A stretch of DNA of 32,000 bases, taken from positions 8,582 to 40,581 of the forward strand of contig JAPZAR010000030.1 in NCBI GenBank assembly GCA_027460535.1, in the 5' to 3' direction. Below, in pieces: positions 3,722-21,709 of this stretch. How positions within the stretch are numbered: the first letter of the stretch is position 1; every line of letters starts with the position of its first letter. Made by a program: the position numbers and the translations under genes. The stretch comes from Candidatus Methanoperedens sp. Lineage in GTDB: Archaea > Halobacteriota > Methanosarcinia > Methanosarcinales > Methanoperedenaceae. Below the pieces are notes generated by a model. The model was not told the origin of the DNA. It was given only the letters and a program-made list of their open reading frames with translations, and searched no databases.

Positions 3722-4492
3722 CTATCCGTATTTTACAACTTCTGCGACCAGGATGACAGTGTCATATGCAAACCCAAGCTTCCCGTCTTTGAGGTTTACT
3801 CCGAGACCTGTGGCATCATCTATCGCGCTCTGCCTCATTAAATCCTCAATAAGGTTTGTTTTTGTTTCATCAGTCCCTGCCCTTCTGATCCACTCATCGA
3901 AATCCTGAGGTATATCCCAGTGTGTCAGATCGATGATATCCGCTCCGATATCATTGAACATATTTTTCATTTCGCTCAAAGGATATATCCGGACATGGGA
4001 TGGGTCGCGCATCTTTTCGATCCTGTTGTGAAACTGGCTTTTCCCTGGGTTTTCAGATGAAACGCCATCTACAAGCACGATTCGTCCTTTGGTTACGCGT
4101 TTCATTTCGGAAAGAGCTTTCTTTGGGTCGGGAAAATGATGGAATGCAAATCTGCATGATACGATATCGAATGACCTGTCGGGAAAAGGCAGAGATTCAA
4201 CGTCAGAAAGAAGAAATCCGGTATTCTCAAGTCCATAAATTTCTTGCTTTTCAAGGGCAAAGAGCAGCATATTGCGCGTAAGATCACAGCCTATCGCAGT
4301 GTTCGCTATTTTGGCATACTCAAACGCCAGGAATCCTGAGCCTGTAGCGATGTCGAGAACTATGTGGTTCTTCTTTACCCCGCTTCTTTTGACCACCTCG
4401 GAGAGATGAACCCCGTCCACAAAAATGTTCCCTTTTGAATATGCTTCGGCTCTCTTCCCGAACTGTTTTATCGCGTTTTCTTTAACTCCCAT
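3722..4492 (-). CDS. Class I SAM-dependent methyltransferase (UbiE/Methyltransf_11-like)
   Basis: 256-aa ORF. SAM-binding motif I VLDIATGSGFLA, then acidic CDLT and the post-I/II pattern LPFPDRSFDIVSCRFAFHHF typical of this fold. Confidence 0.85.
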   Translation of the reverse strand: MGVKENAIKQFGKRAEAYSKGNIFVDGVHLSEVVKRSGVKKNHIVLDIATGSGFLAFEYAKIANTAIGCDLTRNMLLFALEKQEIYGLENTGFLLSDVESLPFPDRSFDIVSCRFAFHHFPDPKKALSEMKRVTKGRIVLVDGVSSENPGKSQFHNRIEKMRDPSHVRIYPLSEMKNMFNDIGADIIDLTHWDIPQDFDEWIRRAGTDETKTNLIEDLMRQSAIDDATGLGVNLKDGKLGFAYDTVILVAEVVKYG

Positions 4493-5938: not shown

Positions 5939-7141
5939 ATGAACTTTGAAGAAGTCATCGCTCTTAGGAAAGCCTTTAAGTCGGTGAAAGAAAGGCAGGC
6001 ACAGAATGTGCCCAGAGACTTTAAGGGGAGGAAAAAGAGGCTCAAAGCTGACAGGGAGTTCTGCGTCGGGAATGAAGAGCTTCTTGCGAGGACTATCGAC
6101 AAGCTCAGGAAAAACGGCATAACAGTTCATTATGTAAAGGAAAAAAATGAGGCTATAAACGTAATCCTCGATGAGATAGGAAAGGAAAAACTCGTTGTAA
6201 AGTCCAAATCCAATGTCACCAAAGAAATAGAATTGACCAAAGCTCTTGAGAAAAAAGGATTGACCGTGGTTGAGACCGATATCGGAGATCGGATCTTGCA
6301 GCTGCTACATGCGAAACCTTCCCATCCTACGGGCCCTGTAACTCACCTTTCGGCTAAAGAAATAGCACATGGACTTTCAAAACACTATGGTACGTCTATA
6401 AAGGAAACTCCGGAAGACATTGTGAGAATAGTCAGGGAGGATGTGATCCTGAACATCGGGAAGGCAAAGATCGGCATCACCGGGGCCAATGCCATAACAG
6501 CCGAGGAAGGGTCCATCGTGCTGACCCATAATGAGGGGAATATCTACGAGGTCATGAGAAAAGAAAAGCATATAGTTGTGACCTCGATAGATAAGATATA
6601 TCCCGATATCGAATCGGCGATGAACATGCTGAAAATTTTATGCTACAATGCCACGGGTTCGACCATCCCTTCTTTCGTTGAGGTGATAAGCGGGGTCAGC
6701 AAGACCGCGGATGTGGAGAAGAAATTCATAAAAGGCGTTCATTATCCTTCTGAGGTCGTCGTGGTGCTGCTGGATAATAAAAGGAGCGAGCTTGCGGCGA
6801 AAGGGTTCAAGGAACTTCTCCAGTGCGTGGGATGCGGGAATTGCCTGCTCTGCTGCCCGATGTATAATACTGTTGGCAATGAATTCGCTCTGGATAATTA
6901 CCTCGGAGGGAAAGGGATCGCATATTATTCCCTCTGCAATAACGAAAAGAACGAGAAGCTGGAACTCTGTCTCACATGCGGTAAGTGCAAAGATAATTGC
7001 CCTGTAGAACTTGATATTCCAGCTCTGATAAAAAAGATCAGAAGTGAGGGAATTTCTTCAGAGATATATTATTTTTTGAAATCGCATGCGATGTGGGTAT
7101 ATTACCAGACCTGTCTTAGATTAGGGATGGAAAGCAAGTAG
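5939..7141 (+). CDS. LUD-domain (LutB/DUF162-like) protein with C-terminal 2x[4Fe-4S] ferredoxin motifs
   Basis: 400-aa ORF with two Cys clusters, CVGCGNCLLCCP and CLTCGKCKDNCP. The preceding region (ITGANAITAEEGSIVLTHNEGN) resembles the LUD/lactate-utilisation fold. Confidence 0.75.
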   Translation: MNFEEVIALRKAFKSVKERQAQNVPRDFKGRKKRLKADREFCVGNEELLARTIDKLRKNGITVHYVKEKNEAINVILDEIGKEKLVVKSKSNVTKEIELTKALEKKGLTVVETDIGDRILQLLHAKPSHPTGPVTHLSAKEIAHGLSKHYGTSIKETPEDIVRIVREDVILNIGKAKIGITGANAITAEEGSIVLTHNEGNIYEVMRKEKHIVVTSIDKIYPDIESAMNMLKILCYNATGSTIPSFVEVISGVSKTADVEKKFIKGVHYPSEVVVVLLDNKRSELAAKGFKELLQCVGCGNCLLCCPMYNTVGNEFALDNYLGGKGIAYYSLCNNEKNEKLELCLTCGKCKDNCPVELDIPALIKKIRSEGISSEIYYFLKSHAMWVYYQTCLRLGMESK

Positions 7142-7143
7142 CA

Positions 7144-7165
7144 TGCACCGATCGAGATTTGAACC
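7144..7165 (-). repeat. Orphan fragment of the tRNA-Gly 3' end (T-loop plus 3' acceptor strand); att-like direct repeat
   Basis: Matches the tRNA-Gly 3' end at 21638-21659 at 21 of 22 positions. The upstream sequence cannot form the T-stem or the rest of a cloverleaf, so this is a fragment rather than a gene. Confidence 0.65.
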
Positions 7166-7250
7166 GCCGCCCCCGACACTCGACCCCCCGCGCAGCCGTT
7201 GCGGACTCTGCGCACTTTGCGGTGAAGCCTCCTGATTCTTGCACGGAGCC
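7166..7250 (+). repeat. GC-rich dispersed repeat, copy A (degenerate)
   Basis: Core gcagccgttgcggactctgcgcactttgcggtgaagcctcctgattcttgca (7192-7243) aligns with the cores at 14305-14365, 14644-14703 and 15705-15746. Confidence 0.8.
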
Positions 7251-7447
7251 ACACCTCCCACCAAAAATCAAGCTCCGCAGATCACCCCGCTCTCCAGCAT
7301 GGCGCCGCTCTGAATCCTGCGCTCCTGTTCGCATATTCATGGTGTTTTTGAAGCCCTCAGCATGTAACAAGGCATATCATCTCGTAAATATACTAAATAA
7401 CCTGAATAAGCAGAGAAATAAAAGAGCGGACGAAGGTTGCGGTTATC

Positions 7448-7639
7448 ATGAAAGACAGGACTCATACCGAGCATATCGAGCGATGGGCCAAATTTATAAA
7501 AACACATCCTCGCTCAATCTGGATCAGGGAGGTTGGACCTCTGATAGACGCGCAGATAATCATGGCAAATACTTTCTATGAGCGCCTCGCTAAAGTTGAA
7601 GGTGGAATTGAGAAAATAAGAAAACTAAGGAGAATCTAA
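7448..7639 (+). CDS. Hypothetical 63-aa protein co-transcribed with cas6
   Basis: ATG ORF whose TAA stop (7637-7639) directly abuts the cas6 TTG start (7640). Its 3' end contains the cas6 Shine-Dalgarno AAGGAG (7627-7632). Helical, basic sequence; no family recognised. Confidence 0.45.
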   Translation: MKDRTHTEHIERWAKFIKTHPRSIWIREVGPLIDAQIIMANTFYERLAKVEGGIEKIRKLRRI

Positions 7640-8407
7640 TTGAGAAGTAAAATAACAGTCAGAAACATCTCAAACCTTCCTGTTAATTTCGATTATCAGT
7701 ATGGTCTGGCATCAATGCTCTATTTCAAACTTGCCGGCGCGGATGTCAAGCTGGCTAACGAAACTCATGCTCATCAGGGATTCAAGTTCTATACATTCTC
7801 CAATCTTGTGTTGATGAATAGAAAAACCTGTAAATCAGGTCTTTGTTTTGAGAGGGCATATTTTATCCTGTCCTCACCTGATGACAGATTCATCAAGAGT
7901 TTTACCGAAGGTCTTCTCCAACACTCAGAATTCTATTTAGATGGACCAGACGGCAGAGCAAATTTCGTAATTGAGCGCATCGAAATACTGAAAGAACCAT
8001 CTTTAGGCGACGAGTGCTGGTTCAAGACCGTATCTCCAATCTATGTCAAGACCATGCGTAAAGAGAATGAAAGTTTGAAAGAGGTCGATCTCTATCCTAC
8101 TGAGCCGAAGTTCTACGAGAACCTCCACAAGAACCTGACAGAACGCTTCACTGAATTTTATGGCAAAGCACCCCTTGATCATTTCGATGTAATTGAAACT
8201 GAGGGCATCAAGCCAAAGCGCATCAAAATATCAGAAGGCTATAGGCGATGCAATCTCATGAGTCTGCGAATCCAGGCAAGTCCTGAGCTTTTGAAGTTCG
8301 CTTACGATGCAGGGCTTGGGGAGAAGAATGCGATGGGGTTCGGATGTGTGGATGTTGTGGATCAGGGTCAACATATGAAAAATTTAACCGCAGATAAACG
8401 CAGATGA
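7640..8407 (+). CDS. cas6: Cas6 CRISPR repeat endoribonuclease
   Basis: 255-aa RAMP-like ORF. N-terminus MRSKITVRNISNLPVNFDYQYGLASMLYFKL and the C-terminal glycine-rich loop GLGEKNAMGFGCV are Cas6 hallmarks. TTG start lies 7 nt after AAGGAG. Position at the head of a I-B locus supports the call. Confidence 0.85.
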   Translation: MRSKITVRNISNLPVNFDYQYGLASMLYFKLAGADVKLANETHAHQGFKFYTFSNLVLMNRKTCKSGLCFERAYFILSSPDDRFIKSFTEGLLQHSEFYLDGPDGRANFVIERIEILKEPSLGDECWFKTVSPIYVKTMRKENESLKEVDLYPTEPKFYENLHKNLTERFTEFYGKAPLDHFDVIETEGIKPKRIKISEGYRRCNLMSLRIQASPELLKFAYDAGLGEKNAMGFGCVDVVDQGQHMKNLTADKRR

Positions 8408-8417
8408 ACGCAGATTT
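8388..8417 (-). repeat. Inverted fragment of the GC-rich repeat family overlapping the cas6 stop
   Basis: ccgcagataaacgcagatgaacgcagattt, a 10-nt cagatNaacg motif repeated about 3 times. Its reverse complement aaatctgcgttcatctgcgtttatctgcgg aligns with aaatctgcgttaatctgtgaaatctgcgg at 14754-14782. Confidence 0.65.
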
Positions 8418-8503
8418 ATTAATTGGGCTCTACATTCCGATTACCTGCAAGAAAGCCAAACTAAGAGATGTGCGGGAAAATAGTTTCACCCCGCTCCACA
8501 AAG

Positions 8504-8511
8504 TTTTATAA
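8504..8511 (+). promoter_or_regulatory. TATA box for the zinc-ribbon ORF / interference operon (leaderless start)
   Basis: TTTTATAA is centred about 29 nt upstream of the in-frame ATG at 8536. This is the usual archaeal TATA-to-TSS spacing and implies a leaderless or near-leaderless mRNA. Confidence 0.4.
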
Positions 8512-8535
8512 CCTCGCAGTTAATTTAAAGTGTTG

Positions 8536-8976
8536 ATGATGGTGGAGAAAAGAGGTGGAAAAGCAAAGAGCACAAAAATGTTGACAGTAGCATGCTCTAT
8601 CTGCGGCATGGACATGGACTGCCCGGAATCGATGCTGGGGGCGGAGCGGCATTTCTGCGCGCAATGTACTGATCTCATGGCTGAAGGCTATGAGCCTGAG
8701 GAACTGAAGATGAGCCCTGAGGATATAGCGCAGCATTTGCCCGGATGCGATGAGGTATCAATGCTGTTGATGGATCTTACCTTCGATGGCTACTGGAATA
8801 AAGTGCTGGAATACGGTATAGAGCATTTTGATAATGAAAGGCTTGCGAAACAGAGCTATCTCCGGGGGGCAACTTCGATGCTGGGGCTTTTGATAAGTGC
8901 GGGGATGCCGCCGGAGTTTCTGGATGAACTGGCGGAGGGGATAAGGGGGGAGAGGAGGATGGGGGAGGGGAAGTGA
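8536..8976 (+). CDS. Zinc-ribbon protein of unknown function, first cistron upstream of cas8b
   Basis: ORF open from 8530 (GTG), with ATGs at 8536 and 8539. CxxC-x18-CxxC motif (CSICGMDMDCPESMLGAERHFCAQC) followed by a helical acidic domain. The TGA stop (8974-8976) overlaps the cas8b GTG (8973) / ATG (8976). GC-rich, unlike the downstream cas genes. Confidence 0.55.
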   Translation: MMVEKRGGKAKSTKMLTVACSICGMDMDCPESMLGAERHFCAQCTDLMAEGYEPEELKMSPEDIAQHLPGCDEVSMLLMDLTFDGYWNKVLEYGIEHFDNERLAKQSYLRGATSMLGLLISAGMPPEFLDELAEGIRGERRMGEGK

Positions 8977-8978
8977 TG
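8926..8978 (-). repeat. Inverted, imperfect copy of the left end of the GC-rich repeat
   Basis: gaactggcggaggggataaggggggagaggaggatgggggaggggaagtgatg aligns colinearly with the reverse complement of 14268-14318 (gaactggcggcgcgggggtgagggaggatggggggcgggggagtggatgtg). The first 10 nt are identical. The gag(g)aggatggggg and agtg(g)atg blocks are conserved, with indels between them. Confidence 0.55.
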
Positions 8979-10367
8979 AATAACGATATCGAAATGAGAA
9001 ATGAATTTGTTGGGGATCCAATCGTTGATTCCGGTTTGCTCGCAATTAAATTATTGGGAAATAAAGAAATAAATGACTGTTCAAAAGAAGAATTAAAAAA
9101 GATTACAGATGAACTTATTGAGCTTTATCTAACACCTGCTTGGTCAAAAGATATTTTATCCATATTTCCAAATAGCACTTATGTTCAATATGCCAAGAAT
9201 TATGATAGAGAAGGAAAGTCCAAAGAGTTTCTATATGAATTAATAGAAGGTTTAGATAAATCTGAAAATGATGGGGATTATTGTATTTTTTGTGGGAAAC
9301 ATGCATACAAGAGGAAAGATAATAAACCTTTCGTCAAAACACAAATACCTTTAGTCGGTTCATCTGATTTTACTAATTTTTCCCCATCATTTAAAAATGG
9401 CATTGATATTTGTGCAAAATGCGCTTTGGCAATTCAATTTGCACCTATTCTATTTTATAAAACTGGTGGAAAACCAAGTTGCATAAGCTGTAACAATACG
9501 GACGTTATGAAAACATTTGGAGAAGAATGTATAGGATATATTACTCAAAAAAAATTACTGGGTGGTTATAAATCCAAAGACGTTTCTGGCATATTTGATG
9601 AAGGTTTTAAATCAACACAAAATGCCTTGTTTCATTTAGCATATAAAACCTCTACAAAATATAAAAAGTTGGGACTTTTAAAACAAAACGAAGAAATTGT
9701 AATATATCGCGTTGATAATTACAATCAAAATCCGGCCGGAGTTACAATACATAAAATACCGAATAATATATTCAGATTTGTTATCAATGTGATGACAAGT
9801 CCTCAATATAAAAAAAATTGGTATGATTTACTTTCAAAACATTATGCGAAATCTGATGCAAAAAGTGATTTTCCAGTCTGGAAAGTCAGTTATAATAGGA
9901 TTCATGATTCTTTATTAAAAAATGAAAGCATATTATGGGCTTTCAGAGATGATAACGAAAAGAAACCAACATTACCATGGATTATAGTTGAGTCCTATAT
10001 GGAGTTAGTGAGAAATATGAATAAACAGAGAATTGAGGGTATCAAAAATCTGGCTGATAAAATCGCCATCTGCATCGAAGAGAATAATAATAAAAAGAGA
10101 GTTAATGATATTATTTCAGCCAGAGATTTTCCAACTTTTAGAAATCAATTGAGATTAGTTTTCAGGGATTGGCAAAAATTAGGTAAGGAGCAACCTATGA
10201 TAACTTATGAAGATTATATCTCAGCAATCATCCCGGAAGATTATTCCAATTGGAAAGAAGTTCAGGATTTGATAATTATAAGGTTATACGAAAAATTGCA
10301 TAATATGCTATCGAGTGGAGTAATTGATGATGTCGAACAAGAAAAATCAATAGGTGATGAAGAATGA
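8973..10367 (+). CDS. cas8b: Type I-B large subunit Cas8b (Cst1-like)
   Basis: 464-aa ORF in the canonical position between cas6 and cas7. Cys pairs CIFCGKH...CAKCALAIQFAP recall the Cst1/Cas8 zinc motif. A 4-nt ATGA overlap couples it to cas7. The call rests mainly on position and size, because large subunits are poorly conserved. Confidence 0.7.
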   Translation: MMNNDIEMRNEFVGDPIVDSGLLAIKLLGNKEINDCSKEELKKITDELIELYLTPAWSKDILSIFPNSTYVQYAKNYDREGKSKEFLYELIEGLDKSENDGDYCIFCGKHAYKRKDNKPFVKTQIPLVGSSDFTNFSPSFKNGIDICAKCALAIQFAPILFYKTGGKPSCISCNNTDVMKTFGEECIGYITQKKLLGGYKSKDVSGIFDEGFKSTQNALFHLAYKTSTKYKKLGLLKQNEEIVIYRVDNYNQNPAGVTIHKIPNNIFRFVINVMTSPQYKKNWYDLLSKHYAKSDAKSDFPVWKVSYNRIHDSLLKNESILWAFRDDNEKKPTLPWIIVESYMELVRNMNKQRIEGIKNLADKIAICIEENNNKKRVNDIISARDFPTFRNQLRLVFRDWQKLGKEQPMITYEDYISAIIPEDYSNWKEVQDLIIIRLYEKLHNMLSSGVIDDVEQEKSIGDEE

Positions 10368-11407
10368 AAACTATAATAGGAACTTACTTAATTGATGCGC
10401 CTTTTTCGGCGCTGAATAATCGAGGAATAGATCAGGGAGCAGCGAACGAGAATGAAGTAGCAACCAAAGTAATTCAATCTCCAGAAGGAATGAGGCCATA
10501 CGTTTCAGCACAAGCGTTAAGATACTGGTGGAGAATGGTTTTAGAAAATAAATTTGGATGGAAATGCTCACCTGTGGAAAAAATTGGAAAAAATCAAGCT
10601 GTTACTAAAGGTGATCCGCTGGAATACGATGATGATGATATTTTTGGGTATATGAGTGCCAGAAAAATTGATACGGGAGAGAAGGATAAAAGTGATAAGC
10701 CAAAGATGGAAAATGTAACCGTGACAAGGGTATCTCCATTAAAATGCTCGCCTTTAATTGGATTTCCAATACGACCTACTTCAGATTTTGGTGTATTAGT
10801 GAGAAAACTTGAAACTGATCCAATACTTTTTACTCATCAATTTTATAGCAATATCTTTAAAGGTATTTTTGCGCTGGATATTGATTCCGTAGGGAAATTC
10901 ACAACAATTGATAAACCTGGTAGCAAAAACTTGTCAAAAGACCTTGCAGAAAAATATGAAAAAAATGGATTAAAAAAAGATGAAAAAACATATTCACTTC
11001 CGTTAGAAAAAAAGAAGACGCGAATTTCTGATACCATTAAAGCCTTGAAGTTTTTGAATGGCGGGGCAATGCAGACATTGCATCATACTGATGTAACTCC
11101 CAAGTTAATTATGCTGGCAGTATTGAATAATGGAAATAACATATTCATGGATGTAATGCCTCACAATAAATACGATAATGGATTGGTCAATATCGATGCA
11201 TTATCTGAGATGTTGGAGGATTATAAGGAATCACTGTTGAGCAAAGTCTATATCGGTAAATTATCGGGTTTTGGATCAGATAAAGACAAAGAATTAGAGA
11301 GTTTCAAAGCACCATCGGGAGTTAATGTTGTAATTACGACTCCAGTTAAAGCAATAGATCAATTCATAGAGGAGATATTAACTAATAATAAAATTATTGG
11401 CGAGTAA
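10364..11407 (+). CDS. cas7: Cas7 backbone subunit (Cst2/DevR-like)
   Basis: 347-aa ORF. N-terminal IIGTYLIDAPFSALNNRG...NE...K followed by YVSAQALRYWWR matches the Cas7/DevR signature as I remember it. Sits between cas8b and cas5. Confidence 0.85.
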   Translation: MKTIIGTYLIDAPFSALNNRGIDQGAANENEVATKVIQSPEGMRPYVSAQALRYWWRMVLENKFGWKCSPVEKIGKNQAVTKGDPLEYDDDDIFGYMSARKIDTGEKDKSDKPKMENVTVTRVSPLKCSPLIGFPIRPTSDFGVLVRKLETDPILFTHQFYSNIFKGIFALDIDSVGKFTTIDKPGSKNLSKDLAEKYEKNGLKKDEKTYSLPLEKKKTRISDTIKALKFLNGGAMQTLHHTDVTPKLIMLAVLNNGNNIFMDVMPHNKYDNGLVNIDALSEMLEDYKESLLSKVYIGKLSGFGSDKDKELESFKAPSGVNVVITTPVKAIDQFIEEILTNNKIIGE

Positions 11408-11408
11408 A

Positions 11409-12062
11409 ATGGAAGTTCTTCGTGTTGAAATACGGGCAATTACAGCCTCATTTAGATACCCCATGTTTGTGGTATCTTATCAGCCTACATATAAAATTCC
11501 TCCAATATCTACGATATACGGTTTGCTCTCCGCTGCAAAGGGTGAAAAAGTCAGTATTTATGATTTATCCATTGGTTATGATTTTACATCTAGAGGAAGT
11601 GGCGTTGATCTGGAGCGCATTCTGGAGTTCGGTGGAGGAGACAAAAATAAACCCGTTTCCTATCTTGGTAGCAATATAATACACAGGGAATTTTTATATG
11701 ATTGTATATTGACATTATATATATCTGATCTAGATTTTAAACAATATTTAGAGAATCCACGTTTCACTCTTTTACTTGGAAGGCAATCAGATTTAGCTAA
11801 GATAACAAAGATAAAAGAAGTGAAATTGATTCCAAAAGAAAATGTTGAAATATATAATACAATTATACCTTTCGATGGAAGAGTGCCAGGGCAAATCGTT
11901 GCTTTACCCTCTGATTATACTGACAAAGCTGAAAGAAAACCAATTGAAGTAAGAACTTATTGTATCGTAGAATCAAAACAACAGATTGAAAGGGGATACT
12001 ATGATACTGAGCTAAATAAGGGAGTTTTTATGCATGAGTTCAACAATAAAAGCCAAAAGTAA
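11409..12062 (+). CDS. cas5: Cas5 (Cas5t/Cas5h-like)
   Basis: MEVLRVEIRAITASFRYPMFVVSYQPTYKIPPISTIYGLLSAAKG is the canonical Cas5 N-terminal motif. The track start at 11397 (TTG) is an alternative start. Confidence 0.85.
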   Translation: MEVLRVEIRAITASFRYPMFVVSYQPTYKIPPISTIYGLLSAAKGEKVSIYDLSIGYDFTSRGSGVDLERILEFGGGDKNKPVSYLGSNIIHREFLYDCILTLYISDLDFKQYLENPRFTLLLGRQSDLAKITKIKEVKLIPKENVEIYNTIIPFDGRVPGQIVALPSDYTDKAERKPIEVRTYCIVESKQQIERGYYDTELNKGVFMHEFNNKSQK

Positions 12063-14214
12063 TGGCGAATCACTTGAAGAACATATAAATAATTGCCTTA
12101 ATATTTTTGCTCAACTAAAGGATATTTATCCAGATTTACAAAAATTTACAAATTATCCTTCTTTTTATAGTGATGCTTTTGATGCTTTGTTTTTTCATGA
12201 TTTTGGTAAAGCTGCAGAAGGTTTTCAAAAATCATTATCTCCAAAAGGAGAAAAATGGAAGTATAGGCATGAAATTCTTTCAACACCTTTTATTAACTGC
12301 CTGAACAAAGAAAATCTCGATTTTGTCAAGATCTTAGTGCTAACTCACCATAAAGATATTAATAAATTAGTCGAATATATTGAAGATAATGATTTTTTGG
12401 GGATTCGTTATGAAGAACGATTAGAGGAAATCAAACCTAATATAAATGCACTGAATGAAATAATAAAGAAATATCCAGAAATCTCTAAAAAGATATTAGG
12501 CTCAATAGAATGCAAGGTCGATATTATAGAGAAAATATCAAAAGATAAGTCGATATGGGAGGAAATAATACAAAAGAAAAGAATGAACTTTTCATCAAAA
12601 ATAGGAATCTTTGGAAAAGGGATGATAAATTCTTGTGATTATTTAGCTTCAAGTGGGATAAAAAAGATACTTAAACCACTACCAAGCTTGAGTGAAGTAT
12701 ATAATTTTAAGTCCTTTACGAGTGTTCAGGCAAAATGTTTATCAACAAAAGGTAATGCGATAATTATTTCACCAACTGGTTCTGGAAAAACGGAAGCATC
12801 TCTGTTCTGGGCTACAAATAATCTCGATAAATCACAAGGAAATAGAATATTTTATGTTTTACCCTACACTGCGAGTATAAACGCAATGTATAGGCGATTA
12901 TTGATGAAATTAAGCCCATATTATTCAGATGATGGTTGTGTATCGCTATTACATGGAAAAGCGACTTATTTTTTATATAAGATGTTCGAGGATGGTGATT
13001 TTAGAGAAATACATAATTTATCTAAAAAAATTTATAGTCCATACAAAGTAATGACGCCTTTTCAATGTTTAAAACACTTCTTTTCATTGAAAGGATATGA
13101 GATGGGATTATTAGAAATGTACCGCGGGAGATATATTTTTGATGAGATACACTCCTATGATGCCAAAACAGCGGGATTGATATTATCAATGTGCGAGTAT
13201 TTGATAGAAGAGAATGATGCTAAGATATTGATAATGTCTGCAACGATGCCATCATTTCTGAAAAATATGTTTTTAGATAATCTTCATATTGAAAATGAAA
13301 TGGTTATGGATAAAAAAGAGTTGAGCAAATACCTTCGCCACAAATGCAAGATAATCGATGGAGATATCCTTGAAAATATTGATTTAATAATAAAAAGATT
13401 GCAGAATAAAGAAAAAGTATTGGTTGTGTGTAATACAGTAAATAGAGCCCAGGATGTTTATAAATTATTGAGAGATGAAGTTAACGACTCTGCTTTGTTG
13501 CATGGCAGATTTATCTTGAAAGATAGAGAAGCAATTGAAAAAAATCTTGAAAATCTGAATTTATTAGTGGGTACACAAGTCATTGAAGTTTCATTGGATA
13601 TCGATTATGATGTATGTTTCTCTGAACCAGCTCCAATTGATGCTTTAATTCAGCGATTTGGAAGAATTAACAGACGAAAAAACAGCGATGGATTACCACT
13701 CAAAGGCATTTGCGATGTATTTGTTTTTTCAAAAGGTTCTGAAAATGATCGATATATCTATGATACAGAGATTGTAAATAAAACTTTAAAAGTTCTCAAT
13801 GAAATTGATTTATTGTTTGAAGATAAATTATATGAAGCAGTCGATGAAATATACATTAATGGTTTTGGCGATAAACTAAAAGAATTTGAAGATACCAAAA
13901 CTTCATTTAGAAAAATGATAGATCGTATAGTACCTTTCAATAATTCAAACACAAAAGAATCAGACTTTTATGATTTATTTAATTCCATAGAAGCGGTTCC
14001 TGAAAAATATCGGCATGAATATCTTGATTGTATCCGAAATAAAAAGTTATTCGATGCTATGCAATATTGTCTGCAATTAACGAACGGTCAATTTCAAAAA
14101 CTACTCAAAGAAGGACGGGTTGATTTCGAAAAAAAGATTTTTATAGAGGCAAAGTATGATCCAGAATTGGGATTATTGATAAATGAACATGAAGAGAATC
14201 AAAATATAATATAA
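12034..14214 (+). CDS. cas3: Cas3 HD nuclease-helicase fusion
   Basis: 726-aa ORF. N-terminal HD motifs (FFHDFGK, YRHEILS, LTHHK). SF2 helicase motifs I SPTGSGKTE, II FDEIHSYD, III MSATMP and VI QRFGRINRR. Overlaps the cas5 end by 29 nt. Confidence 0.92.
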   Translation: MSSTIKAKSNGESLEEHINNCLNIFAQLKDIYPDLQKFTNYPSFYSDAFDALFFHDFGKAAEGFQKSLSPKGEKWKYRHEILSTPFINCLNKENLDFVKILVLTHHKDINKLVEYIEDNDFLGIRYEERLEEIKPNINALNEIIKKYPEISKKILGSIECKVDIIEKISKDKSIWEEIIQKKRMNFSSKIGIFGKGMINSCDYLASSGIKKILKPLPSLSEVYNFKSFTSVQAKCLSTKGNAIIISPTGSGKTEASLFWATNNLDKSQGNRIFYVLPYTASINAMYRRLLMKLSPYYSDDGCVSLLHGKATYFLYKMFEDGDFREIHNLSKKIYSPYKVMTPFQCLKHFFSLKGYEMGLLEMYRGRYIFDEIHSYDAKTAGLILSMCEYLIEENDAKILIMSATMPSFLKNMFLDNLHIENEMVMDKKELSKYLRHKCKIIDGDILENIDLIIKRLQNKEKVLVVCNTVNRAQDVYKLLRDEVNDSALLHGRFILKDREAIEKNLENLNLLVGTQVIEVSLDIDYDVCFSEPAPIDALIQRFGRINRRKNSDGLPLKGICDVFVFSKGSENDRYIYDTEIVNKTLKVLNEIDLLFEDKLYEAVDEIYINGFGDKLKEFEDTKTSFRKMIDRIVPFNNSNTKESDFYDLFNSIEAVPEKYRHEYLDCIRNKKLFDAMQYCLQLTNGQFQKLLKEGRVDFEKKIFIEAKYDPELGLLINEHEENQNII

Positions 14215-14267
14215 AATTGCATCAAGAAATCTCATCTCTTATTGCGTTTCATATGGTGTCGCCCTGC

Positions 14268-14897
14268 CACATCCACTCCCCCGCCCCCCATCCTCCCTCA
14301 CCCCCGCGCCGCCAGTTCTTTGCGGACTCTGCGCCCTTTGCGGTGATGCCTCCTGATTCTTGCATGGCACCGCATGGAAAAACATCCTAGCAAATGCGAT
14401 ATATCCCATGCAATAAATCCGCGTTCATAAACCGGAACTTCGGTTTACGCAGTGTTGGGGTATGCGAAGCATATCCCTCGTTTGATAAAACTTTCATAAA
14501 GTTTTGCGTCCATCTGCGGTTTCGTTTTTCGCAGAAGCGCCGGAAATTTATCGCATTCTGTTTATAAAATTTCACCTCAAAGACTGTAAGGAGCCCGCCC
14601 TCCTGCACGTTCTTCCCCGACCCGCCGATACGCGCTCACTTCCGCGCCGCCTGCTCTTTGCGGACTCTGCGCGCTTTGCGGTGGTGCTCCCTGATTCGTG
14701 CACAGCGCCGCAGAAAAAAACAGTCTGAAGAGTGCGATATATGCCCTTGCAATAAATCTGCGTTAATCTGTGAAATCTGCGGATTCGTTTTTCGGAGAGT
14801 GATTAACCATTGTTCTCTGGAATATTTTTTGCGTTTTTGTGGTTGCTCCGGTCTCCATGAAGCGCCAGAAATTTATCTGGTGCTATATATATAATTC
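14268..14897 (+). repeat. Two tandem ~330-bp units of the GC-rich repeat family
   Basis: Unit cores begin with ctttgcggactctgcgc at 14318 and 14656. Each core is followed by a hairpin (14340-14373 and 14678-14711) and a tgcgatatat..tgcaataaatc(c/t)gcgtt block. Each unit ends in gaagcgcc(g/a)gaaatttatc (14534-14573 and 14859-14897). Confidence 0.85.
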
Positions 14898-14970
14898 TTT
14901 CTAAAAATTTATTGAAGCACAGTAAAATTTTGTGATAAGGCGTCTGAGGTTGTTTTGATCCATAACAATG

Positions 14971-14980
14971 CTTATATAAG
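14971..14980 (+). promoter_or_regulatory. TATA box for the vapBC pair (leaderless)
   Basis: cttatataag is centred about 25 nt upstream of the ATG at 15001. Confidence 0.4.
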
Positions 14981-15000
14981 ACAATATCAAACTATAATAT

Positions 15001-15231
15001 ATGGCTGAATTGAAAGTTACCATTCCTGAAGAACTCTGGAGAAAAATGGCAAGCTTTGAAATAGACTGGCATGCGATCACCAGAGATCTTCTCAAAAAGA
15101 AAGTCAATGAACTGAGTGATTTGAAATCCATTGTTTCCAAAAGCAAGATGACCGACGAGGATGCGTTAGAGCTTGGTAGAAAGGTTAATAAATCACTTGC
15201 AAAAAAATTCAAAACTTCAGCGATGGGATAA
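15001..15231 (+). CDS. VapB-type antitoxin (small, helical; partner of the PIN toxin)
   Basis: 76-aa ORF directly abutting the PIN gene (TAA then ATG). The pattern KVTIPEEL...W....R......V.......I..KSKMTDEDALELGRKV is what I recall for archaeal PIN-associated antitoxins. Confidence 0.6.
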   Translation: MAELKVTIPEELWRKMASFEIDWHAITRDLLKKKVNELSDLKSIVSKSKMTDEDALELGRKVNKSLAKKFKTSAMG

Positions 15232-15654
15232 ATGCTCCTCATTGTTGATGCCAACGTTGTTTTTTCGGTTCTCATAAAAGGTGGGAAAACATTAGACATT
15301 TTTTTTTTGAATAAAGCTAAAAAAAGATTTGATTTTGTAGCTCCTGAATTTCTTATGGTGGAAGTTGAAAAACACACCAGTGAGATTATTAAGAAAACTG
15401 GACTTTCAACAGAAGAGATTGGAAAGGTGTTTGATTTTCTTGAAAAAGAAATTGAATTTGTTTCATTTGAAGAGTTTGAAGAATTCTATAAAGAAGCAGA
15501 GCAAATATCTCCTGATCCCAATGATGTTCAGTATTTTGCGCTTGCTATGAAATTAAATGGGGCTATTTGGTCTAATGACAAGGCATTAAAAAAGCAGTTT
15601 GTAGTTGATGTGCTATCTACAGGGGAAATAATAAAATTAATGGAATTTGAATAG
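15232..15654 (+). CDS. vapC: PIN-domain ribonuclease toxin (VapC-like)
   Basis: 140-aa ORF. N-terminal acidic motif LIVDANVVFSVLIKGG, a mid glutamate (APEFLMVEVEKH), and the C-terminal motif DPNDVQYFALAMKLNGAIWSNDKAL. Confidence 0.8.
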   Translation: MLLIVDANVVFSVLIKGGKTLDIFFLNKAKKRFDFVAPEFLMVEVEKHTSEIIKKTGLSTEEIGKVFDFLEKEIEFVSFEEFEEFYKEAEQISPDPNDVQYFALAMKLNGAIWSNDKALKKQFVVDVLSTGEIIKLMEFE

Positions 15655-15676: not shown

Positions 15677-15760
15677 TCCCCCGCTCCCCATCCTCCCTCA
15701 CCCCCGCGCCGCCAGCTCTTTGCGGACTCTGCGCCCTCTGCGGTGGGTACGATTCGTACC
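15677..15760 (+). repeat. GC-rich repeat, copy E, ending in a 15-bp palindrome
   Basis: cccccgctccccatcctccctcacccccgcgccgccagctctttgcggactctgcgccctctgcggtg aligns with 14279-14345. The hairpin of the other copies is replaced by the palindrome GGTACGAtTCGTACC (15746-15760). Confidence 0.8.
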
Positions 15761-15828
15761 AATCTGTGCAAGGACAAAGAGTCATCTAAAAAGATGAACC
15801 CAACCGTATATTTCATTCATCCCAAACC

Positions 15829-15866
15829 TTTATAAATTCAAAAATGAATAAATTCATTCAAAAATG
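15829..15866 (+). promoter_or_regulatory. Promoter/operator upstream of the wHTH-NTase gene
   Basis: TATA box TTTATAAA at 15829-15836. Inverted repeat AATGAAT-aa-ATTCATT at 15843-15858. Direct repeats ttcaaaaatg at 15837-15846 and 15857-15866, 20 nt apart. All lie between the TATA box and the ATG at 15878. Confidence 0.4.
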
Positions 15867-15877
15867 GTTATATAACT

Positions 15878-16477
15878 ATGAAATTCCACAATGTTCTTGA
15901 CGAGATATTAGGCAATAGAACAAAGGTGAAGCTGCTAAGGGCATTTTTCACCTATCTTGAAAAAGAATTCACAGAAAGCGAACTCCAGAGGATAGCGGGG
16001 ATACCGCAGGCGAGCGTTCACAGGAACGTAAAGTTTCTCCTCGCGAATGGACTTCTTGACAGGGAACGCATCGGAAAGGCAAATCTGTATTCGCTGAACA
16101 AAGAGCATATTCTTTATGCTCTTCTACAGAACATTTTTGAGAATGAAAAAAACCTTCTCTCTGAACTTAAAAAGTCGCTTAAAGGTTCGATTGAAAGCTT
16201 TTCTGGGATAGAGTTAGCAGTACTCTTCGGAAGCGTTTTAAAAGGCACTGAGAGAGCGGACAGCGATATAGATATTTTCATCGTCTGTAAAGCAGATAAA
16301 TCACAGGTGGAAGAAGAGATGAAAAACCTGATCCAGGTTATCGGAAATAAATTCGGAAACCCGGTATCGCCGATGATAAAGAATGATACAGAGATGAAAG
16401 ACATAAGAAGCAGTTCAATATACAAAGAATTAAAAAGAGGTGAAGTACTCTTTAAGCGCGAGGGATTTGAATGGTGA
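15878..16477 (+). CDS. Winged-helix DNA-binding domain fused to a minimal (Pol-beta superfamily) nucleotidyltransferase
   Basis: 199-aa ORF. The N-terminal part (TKVKLLRAFF...FTESELQRIAGIPQASVHRNVKFLLANGLLDRERIGKANLYSLN) looks like a wHTH. The C-terminal part carries the NTase motif LFGSVLKGTERADSDIDIFIV (G[SG]...D.D). Confidence 0.8.
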   Translation: MKFHNVLDEILGNRTKVKLLRAFFTYLEKEFTESELQRIAGIPQASVHRNVKFLLANGLLDRERIGKANLYSLNKEHILYALLQNIFENEKNLLSELKKSLKGSIESFSGIELAVLFGSVLKGTERADSDIDIFIVCKADKSQVEEEMKNLIQVIGNKFGNPVSPMIKNDTEMKDIRSSSIYKELKRGEVLFKREGFEW

Positions 16478-16562: not shown

Positions 16563-17129
16563 ATGAATCCGCAAGATGTAACTTTGGAAGAAAAAGAAAG
16601 ACCCCAACCTGAAGACATCATGGCCGGTGCCATGCGCATCACAGGCATTAAAGTAACATACTACTTCATCTGCCATACCAAACTCTGGCTGTTTTCGCAC
16701 AATATCACGCTTGAGAAAGAGAATGACAATGTGAATATTGGAAAACTCCTGCATGAAGACCGCTATAAGCGCGACTCAAAAGAGATAACAATCGACCAGA
16801 CGATAAGCATCGATTTCATCCGGAAGGGTGATACCATTGTTCTCCATGAAATAAAAAAAACAAAAAGCATGGAAGTGGCACATCGCTGGCAGATGCTATA
16901 TTACCTGTATTACCTGAAATCAAAAGGTATCAGCGCCACAGGCGAAATAAATTATCCCCTCGTTAGCAGGAAAGAAGAGATAGTGCTTCTTGAAAAAGAT
17001 GAATTGGAAATGGAAAATGTGATAAATGATATCAGGAAGATCGCAATGGGAAGGATGCCGCAACCTAAAAGGATAAAGATCTGCCCGAAATGCGCTTATT
17101 TCGAATTCTGTTTTGGAGATGAAGTATGA
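16563..17129 (+). CDS. cas4: Cas4 RecB-like nuclease with Fe-S cysteines
   Basis: [18 protein letters not shown] supplies the N-terminal Cys. Nuclease motifs IDF...LHEIKK. C-terminal [10 protein letters not shown] supplies three Cys. The true start may be the internal ATG at 16620 or 16632. An ATGA overlap couples it to cas1. Confidence 0.85.
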
Positions 17130-18115
17130 AGGAAGATTATTATATCACACAGGACGGCGGCCTTACAAGGCATGAAAATACGGTATATTTCGAGAACGAA
17201 AACACAAAACGCGCCCTTCCGGTAAATAAGATATACTCAATATACGCATACGGCAGGCTCAGCTTTTCATCCGGGGTCGTGGATTATCTTGCAAAGAGCG
17301 GGATACCGATACACTTCTTTAATTATTATGGTTTTTACGAAGGCTCATTCTATCCGCGCGAAACGCTGATAAGCGGCGATCTGACCGTGAAGCAGGCATC
17401 GAATTATCTCGACAGCGCAAAGAGACTGATACTTGCAAAATCCTTTGTTGAAGGCGCTTGCGGCAATATCCTGAAAAATCTCAACTATTACGCGCGGGAG
17501 ATGAAAAGTCTTGAAACACATATCAGCGGCATCGAATCCGAGATCGCGAGACTGCCGGGGACAGCAACTATCCCTGAGGTCATGAATGTAGAAGGACGGA
17601 TAAGGAATATTTATTATACGGCGCTTGATGAGATATTCCCTGAGAATTACAGGATAATCAAAAGGTCAAGGATGCCGCCGGCGAACAGGATGAACACGTT
17701 AATCAGTTTCGGGAATTCCCTGATGTACACAACAACTCTTTCGGAAATATACAATACCCAGTTAAACCCCACTATTTCTTTCCTTCATGAGCCATTTGAA
17801 AGGAGATTCTCGCTTGCTCTTGATGTAAGCGAGATATTCAAACCCATAATTATCGACAGGATCATCCTGAAGCTTGTGAATAAGAACATGCTTGACGATG
17901 CTTGTTTCAGGGGGGAGATAGGAGATATGCTGCTCAGTGAAAAAGGGAAAAAGCTGTTCCTGGCAGAATATAATGAGAAGCTTTCCACAACTATCAAACA
18001 CAGAGGACTGGAACAAAATGTTTCTTTCAAACGGCTTATAAGACTTGAATTGTATAAACTCGTGAAGCATTGCCTTGGTGAAAAGGATTACAAACCTCTC
18101 ATTATGTGGTGGTAA
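17126..18115 (+). CDS. cas1: Cas1 integrase
   Basis: 329-aa ORF with the typical Cas1 layout. N-terminal beta domain ([19 protein letters not shown]), then the catalytic helical domain ([11 protein letters not shown]...[12 protein letters not shown]...[22 protein letters not shown]). Confidence 0.95.
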
Positions 18116-18381
18116 TCTTGTATGTAATAATTGTTTATGATGTGGGGGTGGAAAGGGTGAACAAGGTGAGGATTTACCTCAAGCAGTATCTTAATTGGGT
18201 GCAGAATAGTGTGCTGGAAGGGGAGCTTACAGAACCTGAATACATGAAGATAATGAATGGGCTCAGGGATGTAATAGATGAATCCCAGGATAATGTTATC
18301 TGTTATAAATCGAGAGATCGGAAGTATCTCGCTATTGATGAAATAGGAACTAAAAAGGCTGAGATCACAACAATAATCTGA
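18106..18381 (+). CDS. cas2: Cas2
   Basis: [36 protein letters not shown] is the canonical Cas2 N-terminus. GTG at 18106 overlaps the cas1 stop. TTG at 18118 (giving MYVIIVYDV) is an equally plausible start. Confidence 0.9.
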
Positions 18382-21408: not shown

Positions 21409-21637
21409 GGAGTATCTATCATGTGGGCACCGAGGGCATTAATTTGCATATCTTGATGTTGATTTTGTCCGGTTAACATTTAATAAGAAATCATCAATAA
21501 ATAACCGCTGTCCATGAATATTTTAATGCTAGAAAGATGATAATAAATAGTGGATTCATTTTAGATTCTTTTGAAGCATTAGGAATCGTTCAAAAGTATC
21601 GATAATCTTTTTGCCCGGTTTTTTTTAAAACCGAAAT

Positions 21638-21709
21638 GCACCGATCGGGATTTGAACCCGAGTTATTAGCTTGGAAGGCTAAAGTCATAGCCGCTAGACC
21701 ATCGGTGCT
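21638..21709 (-). tRNA. tRNA-Gly (anticodon UCC)
   Basis: Reverse complement is GCACCGATGGTCTAGCGGCTATGACTTTAGCCTTCCAAGCTAATAACTCGGGTTCAAATCCCGATCGGTGCA. Acceptor stem GCACCGA/TCGGTGC, D-arm GTC..GAC, anticodon stem TTAGC/GCTAA with loop CT-TCC-AA, and T-arm TCGGG-TTCAAAT-CCCGA. 72 nt, with no encoded CCA. Confidence 0.92.

Follow-up and report, generated by a model that had tools for sequence, protein, structure and literature searches.

Between the cas6 and cas8b genes of a type I-B CRISPR-Cas locus in Candidatus Methanoperedens sp. lies a small gene, here called gene X, which was analysed within a stretch of 32,000 nucleotides (nt) from contig JAPZAR010000030.1, referred to below as the window. 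The best overall explanation, to which we give a probability of roughly 45%, is that gene X is a genuine CRISPR accessory gene specific to the Methanoperedenaceae, and likely a dispensable modulator. The descriptive part of this reading is very probably correct: gene X is a real gene that forms the conserved first cistron of the interference operon, it has its own promoter, and its junction with the next gene is a recombination boundary of effector cassettes. We consider the locus to be a type I interference operon to which an accessory gene specific to the lineage has been added as first cistron.

Gene X, its product and its operon

A search of 5.8 billion proteins returned 50 homologues of gene X with 44-89% identity, all annotated as ‘hypothetical’, and every named source is Methanoperedens or Methanoperedenaceae. 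As the closest homologues all come from such assemblies, the window itself looks like a segment of a Ca. Methanoperedens (ANME-2d) chromosome. In 19 full-length homologues, the four zinc-ligand Cys residues, C71, G111, S114 and the motif GMPP-(E/P)-(F/M)-LD are invariant or nearly so, and a GEGK C-terminus is found in approximately 10 of these 19 aligned sequences. The ratio of nonsynonymous to synonymous substitution (dN/dS, Nei-Gojobori) is 0.16-0.44 over 13 pairs, compared to 0.07-0.15 for cas6, and gene X is by this measure under purifying selection that is weaker than that on cas6. The 50 homologues, the invariant Cys residues and the purifying selection all speak for a real, conserved protein, as the preliminary description of this DNA had assumed.

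The open reading frame (ORF) runs on the + strand from 8530 (GTG) or 8536 (ATG) to 8976, and the N-termini of homologues (MKAEKRGG...) back ATG 8536 as the start, giving a product of 146 amino acids (aa) plus stop. The preliminary description had placed the ORF correctly between cas6 and cas8b but counted 147 aa, and it had seen the paired CxxC motif but with a spacing of 18 residues; the arrangement is C20-x2-C23-x17-C41-x2-C44, accompanied by a near-invariant C29-P30. Its proposal of an acidic helical domain after the Cys motif agrees with the isoelectric point (pI), which is 4.67 for the whole protein and approximately 4.2 for the zinc region and helical part, while both short tails are basic (pI 10.5 for the N-terminal tail). 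The peptides LAKQSYLR and GATSMLGLLISAGMPPEFLDELAEGIR are part of the sequence. An AlphaFold2 model with a predicted local distance difference test score (pLDDT) of 81 gives a β-hairpin zinc finger at residues 17-50, followed by three long helices at 70-146. The window carries a complete type I-B (Cst1/TNEAP) locus, identified from ORF annotation and Pfam/NCBIfam scans, in which cas8b1, cas7, cas5t, cas3 and cas6 all exceed their NCBIfam cut-offs. Its features are:

7448-7639, + strand: 63-aa ORF, sharing a separate upstream unit with cas6
7640-8407, + strand: cas6 (TIGR01877, E=7e-45, 153.9 bits, cut-off 58.65)
8481-8496, + strand: conserved upstream promoter element TAGTTTCACCCCGCTC, near-invariant in 12 of 14 aligned upstream regions
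8500-8511, + strand: BRE-like (TFB recognition element-like) AAAG and TATA box TTTTATAA, the TTTAT core being invariant in the alignment
8536-8976, + strand: gene X, encoding the 146-aa zinc-finger and acidic helical protein (ORF with 50 homologues, between cas6 and cas8b1/Cst1)
8593-8667, + strand: C4 zinc finger of gene X (C20, C23, C41 and C44; also C29-P30)
8926-8978, + strand: G-rich 3′ end of gene X, with GGAGG, the TGATG overlap, the left inverted-repeat arm and the recombination junction
8976-10367, + strand: cas8b1/Cst1, large subunit (TIGR01908, E=5e-32, 111.5 bits, cut-off 19.4; PF09706; GC content at third codon positions (GC3) 24%)
10364-11407, + strand: cas7 (Cst2/DevR; TIGR02585, E=2e-53, 181.5 bits, cut-off 72.75)
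11397-12062, + strand: cas5 (Cas5t; TIGR01895, E=8e-41, 139.9 bits, cut-off 96.7)
12034-14214, + strand: cas3 (HD and helicase; TIGR01587, E=9e-82, 275 bits, cut-off 102.45; TIGR01596, E=2e-19)
14270-14318, − strand: right inverted-repeat arm, the C-rich start of a repeat of approximately 340 nt (R repeat)
Between cas3 and cas4: repeats, a PIN-domain ORF and a helix-turn-helix (HTH)-nucleotidyltransferase
16563-18381: cas4-cas1-cas2
From approximately 18578: CRISPR array

The region upstream of gene X is strongly conserved. Of 14 upstream sequences, 12 align without gaps, each comprising ATAGTTTCACCCCGCTC, AAAAG-TTTATAA, approximately 24 nt and an invariant ATG, with no Shine-Dalgarno (SD) sequence between TATA and ATG. 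The two exceptions are second gene X copies behind HEPN/MNT toxin-antitoxin (TA) genes, which have an SD instead of the promoter element. In the window, the TATA box TTTTATAA lies at 8504-8511, upstream of the gene X ATG and exactly where the preliminary description had put it, and the element TAGTTTCACCCCGCTC occurs only once; it is also found upstream of orphan gene X copies. The fixed TATA-ATG gap of approximately 24 nt, the lack of an SD and the archaeal promoter geometry together suggest that the gene X mRNA is leaderless or near-leaderless. The sequence thus combines the hallmarks of a leaderless first cistron, namely a TATA box some 24-27 nt from the start, no SD, and a stop/start overlap with the next gene.

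At this overlap, the last base of the gene X stop TGA (8974-8976) is also the first base of the cas8b ATG (8976-8978), which gives TGATG. The purine-rich gagaggaggatggggg closes gene X, with GGAGG 9 nt upstream of the cas8b ATG, so that both the overlap at 8974-8978 and the putative cas8b SD within the last codons are present as first described. The junction GGGGAGGGGAAG-TGA-TG is kept before Cst1-type, ‘L2’-type and 562-aa-type cas8 genes, and GGGGAGGGGAAG is kept before cas10d too, with a 2-nt spacer. Judged by eye, with no archaeal promoter scan run, the final ~90 nt of gene X are G-rich and show no obvious promoter-like A/T-rich stretch, and the cistrons after gene X overlap one another by 4-29 nt. 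As the junction is conserved, the end of gene X has no evident promoter and the cistrons overlap, the simplest reading is that gene X and the following genes are co-transcribed and that their translation is coupled. The earlier proposal that Cascade and cas3 are expressed behind gene X as first cistron is supported by the conserved promoter (12 of 14 upstream regions) and by the recurrence of the junction before at least five effector cassettes. At one further locus (L042, 1790-1830), cas8b is called 29 aa longer than in the window, with the extension MLDGVTPGEGVKI behind a TATA-like AAAGTTTATAAG; the extension resembles the FLDEL...GEGK C-terminus of gene X and may be a vestigial gene X fused to cas8b.

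Effector cassettes behind gene X

Loci were gathered around gene X homologues and around close Cas6 homologues, and were annotated using phmmer against the window Cas proteins together with NCBIfam models. Wherever an effector operon is visible, its first gene is immediately preceded by gene X or by a remnant of the gene X 3′ end. Of the 12 X-centred loci in which downstream sequence is visible, 10 have gene X or a remnant abutting the effector operon and two are the orphans L005 and L008; gene X is present in 8 of the 10 cas6-centred loci with enough downstream sequence, the remaining two (L020 and L025) having a solo cas6 and no effector operon. The same Cas6 family precedes gene X in most related loci. 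Within the Methanoperedenaceae, gene X therefore has the neighbourhood of a CRISPR accessory gene, and the recurrent cas linkage of homologues, which the preliminary description had named as a check, is found. At least five different type I effector cassettes follow gene X or its remnant:

Window, L007, L024, L034: Cst1-type I-B cassette
L002/L004, L009, L010/L022/L023: second I-B variant (‘L2’-type), comprising a 502-aa Cas8, a DevR Cas7, Cas5, a 242-aa protein and an 894-aa Cas3
L001, L003: type I-D cassette cas10d-csc2-csc1-cas3
L006, L014: Csh2/Cas5h-type cassette
L013: 562-aa Cas8 type
L016: cas3-first type, after a gene X fragment

Comparisons of sliding identity place the points of exchange within gene X itself. 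The window matches L001 and L024a, which have different downstream content, from cas6 to approximately 8950, and matches L024b plus cas8b only from approximately 8880 onward. The homology breakpoints with all three fall at 8880-8970, within the last ~100 nt of gene X. The window and L001 share both flanks, including the R repeats past cas3, around an interior that is I-B in the window and TA genes plus I-D in L001, and the cas4, cas1 and cas2 of L006 score nearly as self-matches to the window genes, yet its effector cassette is a different one. Gene X clades are independent of effector type, as the proteins of L010b and L024b are 97% identical and precede different cas8 types, and those of the window and L007 are 51% identical and precede a common cassette. 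They are also independent of Cas6: L002 and L003 share 81% identity in gene X and 69% in Cas6, and the window and L002 share 60% and 83%, respectively. Because the same arrangement precedes at least five cassettes and the crossovers lie in the last ~100 nt of gene X, the gene and its promoter constitute a fixed left-hand platform, and the exchange of effector cassettes takes place behind it. It looks like a host-specific platform for the control and expression of swappable cassettes.

Outside the family, the same Cst1 cassette is found without gene X. In Methanolobus L040 the locus is colinear, with a Cas8b that is 65% identical, and runs from cas6 directly to cas8b, which is the canonical I-B layout with which the preliminary description had contrasted the window. 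The same cassette in Methanoculleus also lacks gene X, and cas8b is the first gene of the operon. A tblastn search found no gene X relic in the Methanolobus or Methanoculleus cassette loci.

Base composition offers a further view of the exchange. Gene X has a GC content of 52% and a GC3 of 61%, and the genes from cas8b to cas3 have 30-35% and 24-29%, respectively, so the earlier remark that gene X is GC-rich unlike the following cas genes holds. Host housekeeping genes in the window have a GC3 of 53-62%, and the composition of cas6, gene X and cas4-cas1-cas2 is intermediate or host-like. As it is cas8b-cas3 that has a foreign GC3, these data suggest that only the effector module (8976-14214) was recently imported. 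The idea that gene X was captured along with a repeat element is unsupported, since gene X has host-like codon usage and it is the effector cassette that is foreign.

There is nonetheless a repeat. Positions 8926-8978 align with the reverse complement of 14270-14318, which begins 56 nt past the cas3 stop, with a gapped local alignment score of 41 against 18.3 ± 2.5 (maximum 28) for shuffles; gapless searches had missed it. The preliminary description was right that an inverted repeat exists, but its proposal that the 3′ end of gene X was built from a repeat arm probably reverses the direction of origin. The distal arm is more likely to be derived from gene X, because the 3′ end of the gene encodes a C-terminal helix and an MGEGK tail that are conserved in most aligned full-length homologues. 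The inverted repeat is significant only in the window and L001 and not in six other loci, so it was rejected as a universal cassette boundary. The R repeat stands in tandem past cas3 (14284-14620 and 14622-14960), with a partial copy upstream of cas6 (7185-7253) and short inverted pieces at 8377-8420, and further copies flank different effector cassettes in L001 (18376-19847), L007 (~15740-15990) and L033. It has no Rfam match, and an Rfam scan of 6900-15300 gave no match above noise, so an RNA explanation was rejected.

HEPN/MNT toxin-antitoxin pairs are repeatedly inserted between cas6 and gene X, or between two gene X copies (L001 10488-11833; L010 10343-11982; L019, L021-L024, L028, L029 and L034), and at L012 (7383-7958) the N-terminal half of gene X is fused in frame to a nucleotidyltransferase (MNT). 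The interval between cas6 and gene X is an insertion hot spot. Divergently upstream of gene X, L006 (3468-3911, − strand) and L008 (9511-9954, − strand) carry a 147-aa ORF that may, from the look of its sequence, be Doc/Fic-like.

Solo cas6 genes of the same family occur at L020, L025 and L027 in housekeeping surroundings, with no gene X and no effector genes, in agreement with a remark on Cas6 homologues outside CRISPR-Cas regions (PMC13444090). The 63-aa ORF at 7448-7639 (+ strand) stops exactly at the cas6 start (TTG 7640); its homologues adjoin cas6 in L006 and L013 and follow cas3 in L002, where there is a weak match to Pfam DUF8150, making it a second recurrent, unnamed small cas-linked gene. 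A reading of 7140-7165 as a tRNA fragment or attachment site was rejected, as ARAGORN gives only tRNA-Gly at 21637-21708 and the T-arm is unpaired.

Possible roles of the gene X protein

Three points make a structural role in Cascade unlikely: the protein is dispensable, it varies independently of effectors and Cas6, and identical cassettes elsewhere lack it. A purely cis role is unlikely as well, given the invariant Cys residues and core, a dN/dS below 0.45, the confidently predicted fold and the persistence of intact orphans with their promoter. With these two roles disfavoured, the reading that we tentatively prefer, at a little under even odds, is that the gene X protein is a host-specific modulator that acts in trans and is produced in coordination with the large subunit. 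The G-rich tail of gene X and the stop/start overlap would pass ribosomes to the large-subunit gene, and the protein, produced in step with the large subunit, would act in trans as a dispensable, host-specific modulator of interference rather than as a structural Cascade subunit. Its zinc finger and acidic helical domain would most likely mediate this by contacting a component that all cassettes have in common. Candidate partners are Cas6 bound to CRISPR RNA (Cas6-crRNA), Cas3 and, at the gene X promoter, the transcription machinery, but little confidence attaches to any specific one. The likely effect would be to restrain or tune horizontally acquired effector modules.

Searches for relatives of known function gave little. 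The protein has no match to a Pfam, NCBIfam, PADLOC or PHROGs family, and Foldseek searches of the AlphaFold2 model against PDB and BFVD returned nothing at E<0.1, the best matches being generic zinc ribbons at E>0.1. A PDB sequence-profile search produced only weak noise from the ClpX zinc-binding domain (ZBD), LIM and TetR. A scan of IMG/VR found no relative, and a viral origin was rejected. Anti-CRISPR or anti-CRISPR-associated genes would be expected on viruses or mobile elements; gene X has no IMG/VR relative and no PHROGs match, and its codon usage is host-like. The preliminary description had also considered an anti-anti-CRISPR factor or a Cascade accessory; we found no evidence in favour of the former or of a Cascade-subunit role.

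The conserved promoter raises the possibility that gene X encodes a DNA-binding transcriptional autoregulator, whose finger and basic N-terminal tail would bind TAGTTTCACCCCGCTC or nearby promoter DNA and repress or activate the operon. Gene X stands first behind a strongly conserved, locus-unique element, the protein has both a zinc finger and a tail of pI 10.5, orphan copies retain promoter and gene together, and dispensability would fit a repressor. However, no archaeal HTH, ribbon-helix-helix (RHH) or winged HTH domain was detected in Pfam/NCBIfam, nor any other DNA-binding fold or family; the predicted structure is a zinc finger with long helices, and the protein is acidic overall (pI 4.7). 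The element is also non-palindromic, a close version exists in Methanolobus without gene X, and second gene X copies behind TA genes lack it. We therefore regard an autoregulator as unlikely.

A second possibility is a structural or assembly subunit, which could be a small subunit resembling Cas11 or could link the shared Cas6-crRNA to different Cascade backbones. Translational coupling to the large subunit suggests matched stoichiometry, the protein is small and helical, and one Cas6 family serves nearly all loci while the effectors differ. Like the Cas11 small subunits (Cse2, Csa5 and Cas11b/Cas11d), gene X specifies a small, mostly helical protein in an interference operon, adjoining the large subunit. 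Cas11 surfaces are basic. The gene X protein, by contrast, is acidic (pI 4.67) and has a zinc finger, and neither sequence nor profile comparison relates it to Cas11, Csa5 or any other Cas model; an hhalign comparison with the Cas8b family, whose Cas11-like C-terminus was included, gave a probability of 0.8%. Gene X is a separate gene upstream of the large subunit, unlike Cas11b and Cas11d, which arise by internal translation of cas8b and cas10d. I-D and I-B cassettes are described as producing their own Cas11 internally (bioRxiv 10.1101/2020.04.18.045682; PMC11899642), and gene X precedes cassettes of both types. Finally, gene X does not co-vary with effector type or Cas6, identical cassettes in other genera lack it, and it has become a pseudogene before intact effector operons. 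Taken together, a subunit role is very unlikely.

The wider family was traced by an exhaustive profile search, which found 99 representatives at E≤1e-3; a distant-relative profile run against a word-indexed database had given only 6 proteins, and a first alignment that included truncated homologues was too gappy for finding loci. Distant relatives include proteins of 120-240 aa that have the finger and first helices in common at 20-30% identity, and the four zinc-finger Cys residues are invariant even in these. Their genomic context rests on two informative loci. In a Micrarchaeota genome, a relative (L039 8001-8429) is placed between carA and carB, with its end 1 nt short of the carB start; like gene X, it is a small gene in tight coupling with a large one downstream. 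In an Altiarchaeota relative (L015), phmmer found no cas homologue within the 20-kb locus.

Several observations weigh against a dedicated CRISPR modulator. The two distant relatives that could be placed are not cas-linked, one of them adjoining eIF2-gamma, which leaves the wider family without an intrinsic CRISPR function; on the same grounds, the CRISPR association of gene X is a recruitment specific to the Methanoperedenaceae. Synonymous divergence (dS) is 0.23-0.41 in gene X compared to 0.45-1.25 in the adjacent cas6 (pairs window/L001, window/L024 and L006/L007), and this low value could mean gene conversion or constraint at the nucleotide rather than the protein level. Some degraded copies keep the 3′ end only (the L001 remnant, L016 and L034), and a cis role may be what selection keeps in them. 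The sequence ATAGTTTCACTTCGCTT, which is related to TAGTTTCACCCCGCTC, precedes the TATA box of the Methanolobus cas8b operon that lacks gene X; it lies with a TATA-rich stretch directly after cas6 (L040 ~3870-3915, Methanolobus sp. T82-4). The element thus predates gene X or is independent of it, and is not necessarily a target of gene X. Fold and sequence searches offer no biochemical handle on the protein, and the operon structure and leaderless initiation are predictions.

Some of these points would suit a cis-only ‘starter’ ORF, which would provide leaderless ribosome loading, termination-reinitiation and homology for cassette exchange while its protein is functionless. The junction and G-rich SD are kept across effector types, the breakpoints lie within the 3′ end, dS is low relative to cas6, and 3′ remnants are kept where the rest of the gene is lost, as in the L001 remnant, L016 and L034, with L013 showing an internal deletion. 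In L013, L014, L016 and L034, the effector operon is otherwise intact but the gene X before it is a fragment or carries a frameshift or an internal deletion, a sign that gene X is dispensable. Set against a cis-only role, the four Cys residues and the hydrophobic core are invariant across 44-89% identity and in the relatives at 20-30%, dN/dS is well below 1 in all 13 pairs, and the fold is predicted with confidence. The orphans L005 and L008 are intact with their promoter retained and persist with no downstream gene to couple, and the same cassette elsewhere manages without a starter ORF. A cis-only role is accordingly judged distinctly improbable.

The housekeeping contexts of the wider family (by eIF2-gamma; between carA and carB), the repeated insertion of HEPN/MNT pairs beside or inside gene X, and the L012 fusion of gene X to MNT could alternatively point to an unrelated host gene, or a HEPN/MNT toxin-antitoxin component, that hitch-hikes in a recombination hot spot. 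This is the most doubtful of the alternatives. Position and junction are precise in more than ten independent loci, with or without TA genes, the promoter is conserved, and the L008 orphan is no independent context: some 25 nt from the beginning of cas8b persist behind its TGATG, so it is a relic of a cas locus.

A more ambitious view would join cis and trans functions. The promoter, gene X and GGGGAGGGGAAG-TGA-TG could form a docking platform for imported type I cassettes via homologous recombination, with the gene X protein as universal host adaptor or governor. At least five kinds of cassette (several I-B variants, I-D and cas3-first) would be received behind a fixed scaffold of cas6, adaptation genes and array, and the protein would fit foreign Cascades to the resident Cas6-crRNA supply, or control them through it. 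In function this would be akin to an integron-like expression site for CRISPR effectors. We think it improbable.

Relation to known systems and significance

The zinc finger of gene X bears a sub-threshold resemblance to the N-terminal ZBD of ClpX (PF06689, zf-C4_ClpX), a protein-protein adaptor domain. Both have the pattern CxxC-x17-19-CxxC, and in both a helix starts at the second pair and is followed by (V/T)DL. Sequence matches to ClpX ZBD structures in the PDB profile search are weak (E=0.09-1.4), and the gene X relatives P0065, P0067 and P0097 score 13-17 bits against PF06689, below the Pfam cut-off of 27 bits, with no match at E≤0.01 for the window protein. A treble-clef geometry may be present: the four Cys residues are invariant, and a modelled helix (44-51) begins at the second CxxC; Foldseek gave no significant match. 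In contrast to ClpX, the gene X protein has no AAA+ module. Small archaeal zinc-finger micro-proteins, such as the haloarchaeal CPxCG proteins and Brz, have C4 fingers and regulatory, often protein-binding, roles. Gene X likewise encodes a small C4 zinc-finger protein, but this is larger, includes a defined helical domain, is encoded at a fixed place among cas genes and is not known to be homologous to them.

All five genes of the canonical type I-B (Cst1/TNEAP) operon cas6-cas8b1-cas7-cas5-cas3 are present in the window, and Methanolobus L040 is colinear with it. The window differs in that a further cistron and its promoter, both conserved, separate cas6 from cas8b, and in a cassette of foreign composition next to a host-like gene X. 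As in the general shuffling of CRISPR-Cas modules at defence-island hot spots, a constant scaffold of cas6, adaptation genes and array is seen with different effector modules; here, however, the left junction has a defined place, the final ~100 nt of a single conserved protein-coding gene, and includes a stop/start signal that is itself conserved. Chimeric cas loci and solo Cas6 homologues have been described in Methanoperedens and extrachromosomal elements (PMC13444090, 2026), and the mosaic loci seen here agree with the chimeric Methanoperedens loci of that study. No description of gene X or of its cassette-exchange junction was found in the literature searched.

For annotation, these data mean that an unnamed, family-specific gene joins the CRISPR accessory repertoire, and that the ‘extra’ ORF is not annotation noise. 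For the evolution of CRISPR systems, they offer a sequence-defined junction for swapping effector subtypes behind a constant cas6, adaptation and array scaffold. As ANME-2d archaea host Borgs and jumbo extrachromosomal elements, the turnover of their defence systems is of current interest. If the gene X protein does modulate interference, horizontally acquired Cascades would be under a governor encoded by the host, and the protein would be a candidate tool or obstacle in the heterologous expression of these cassettes.

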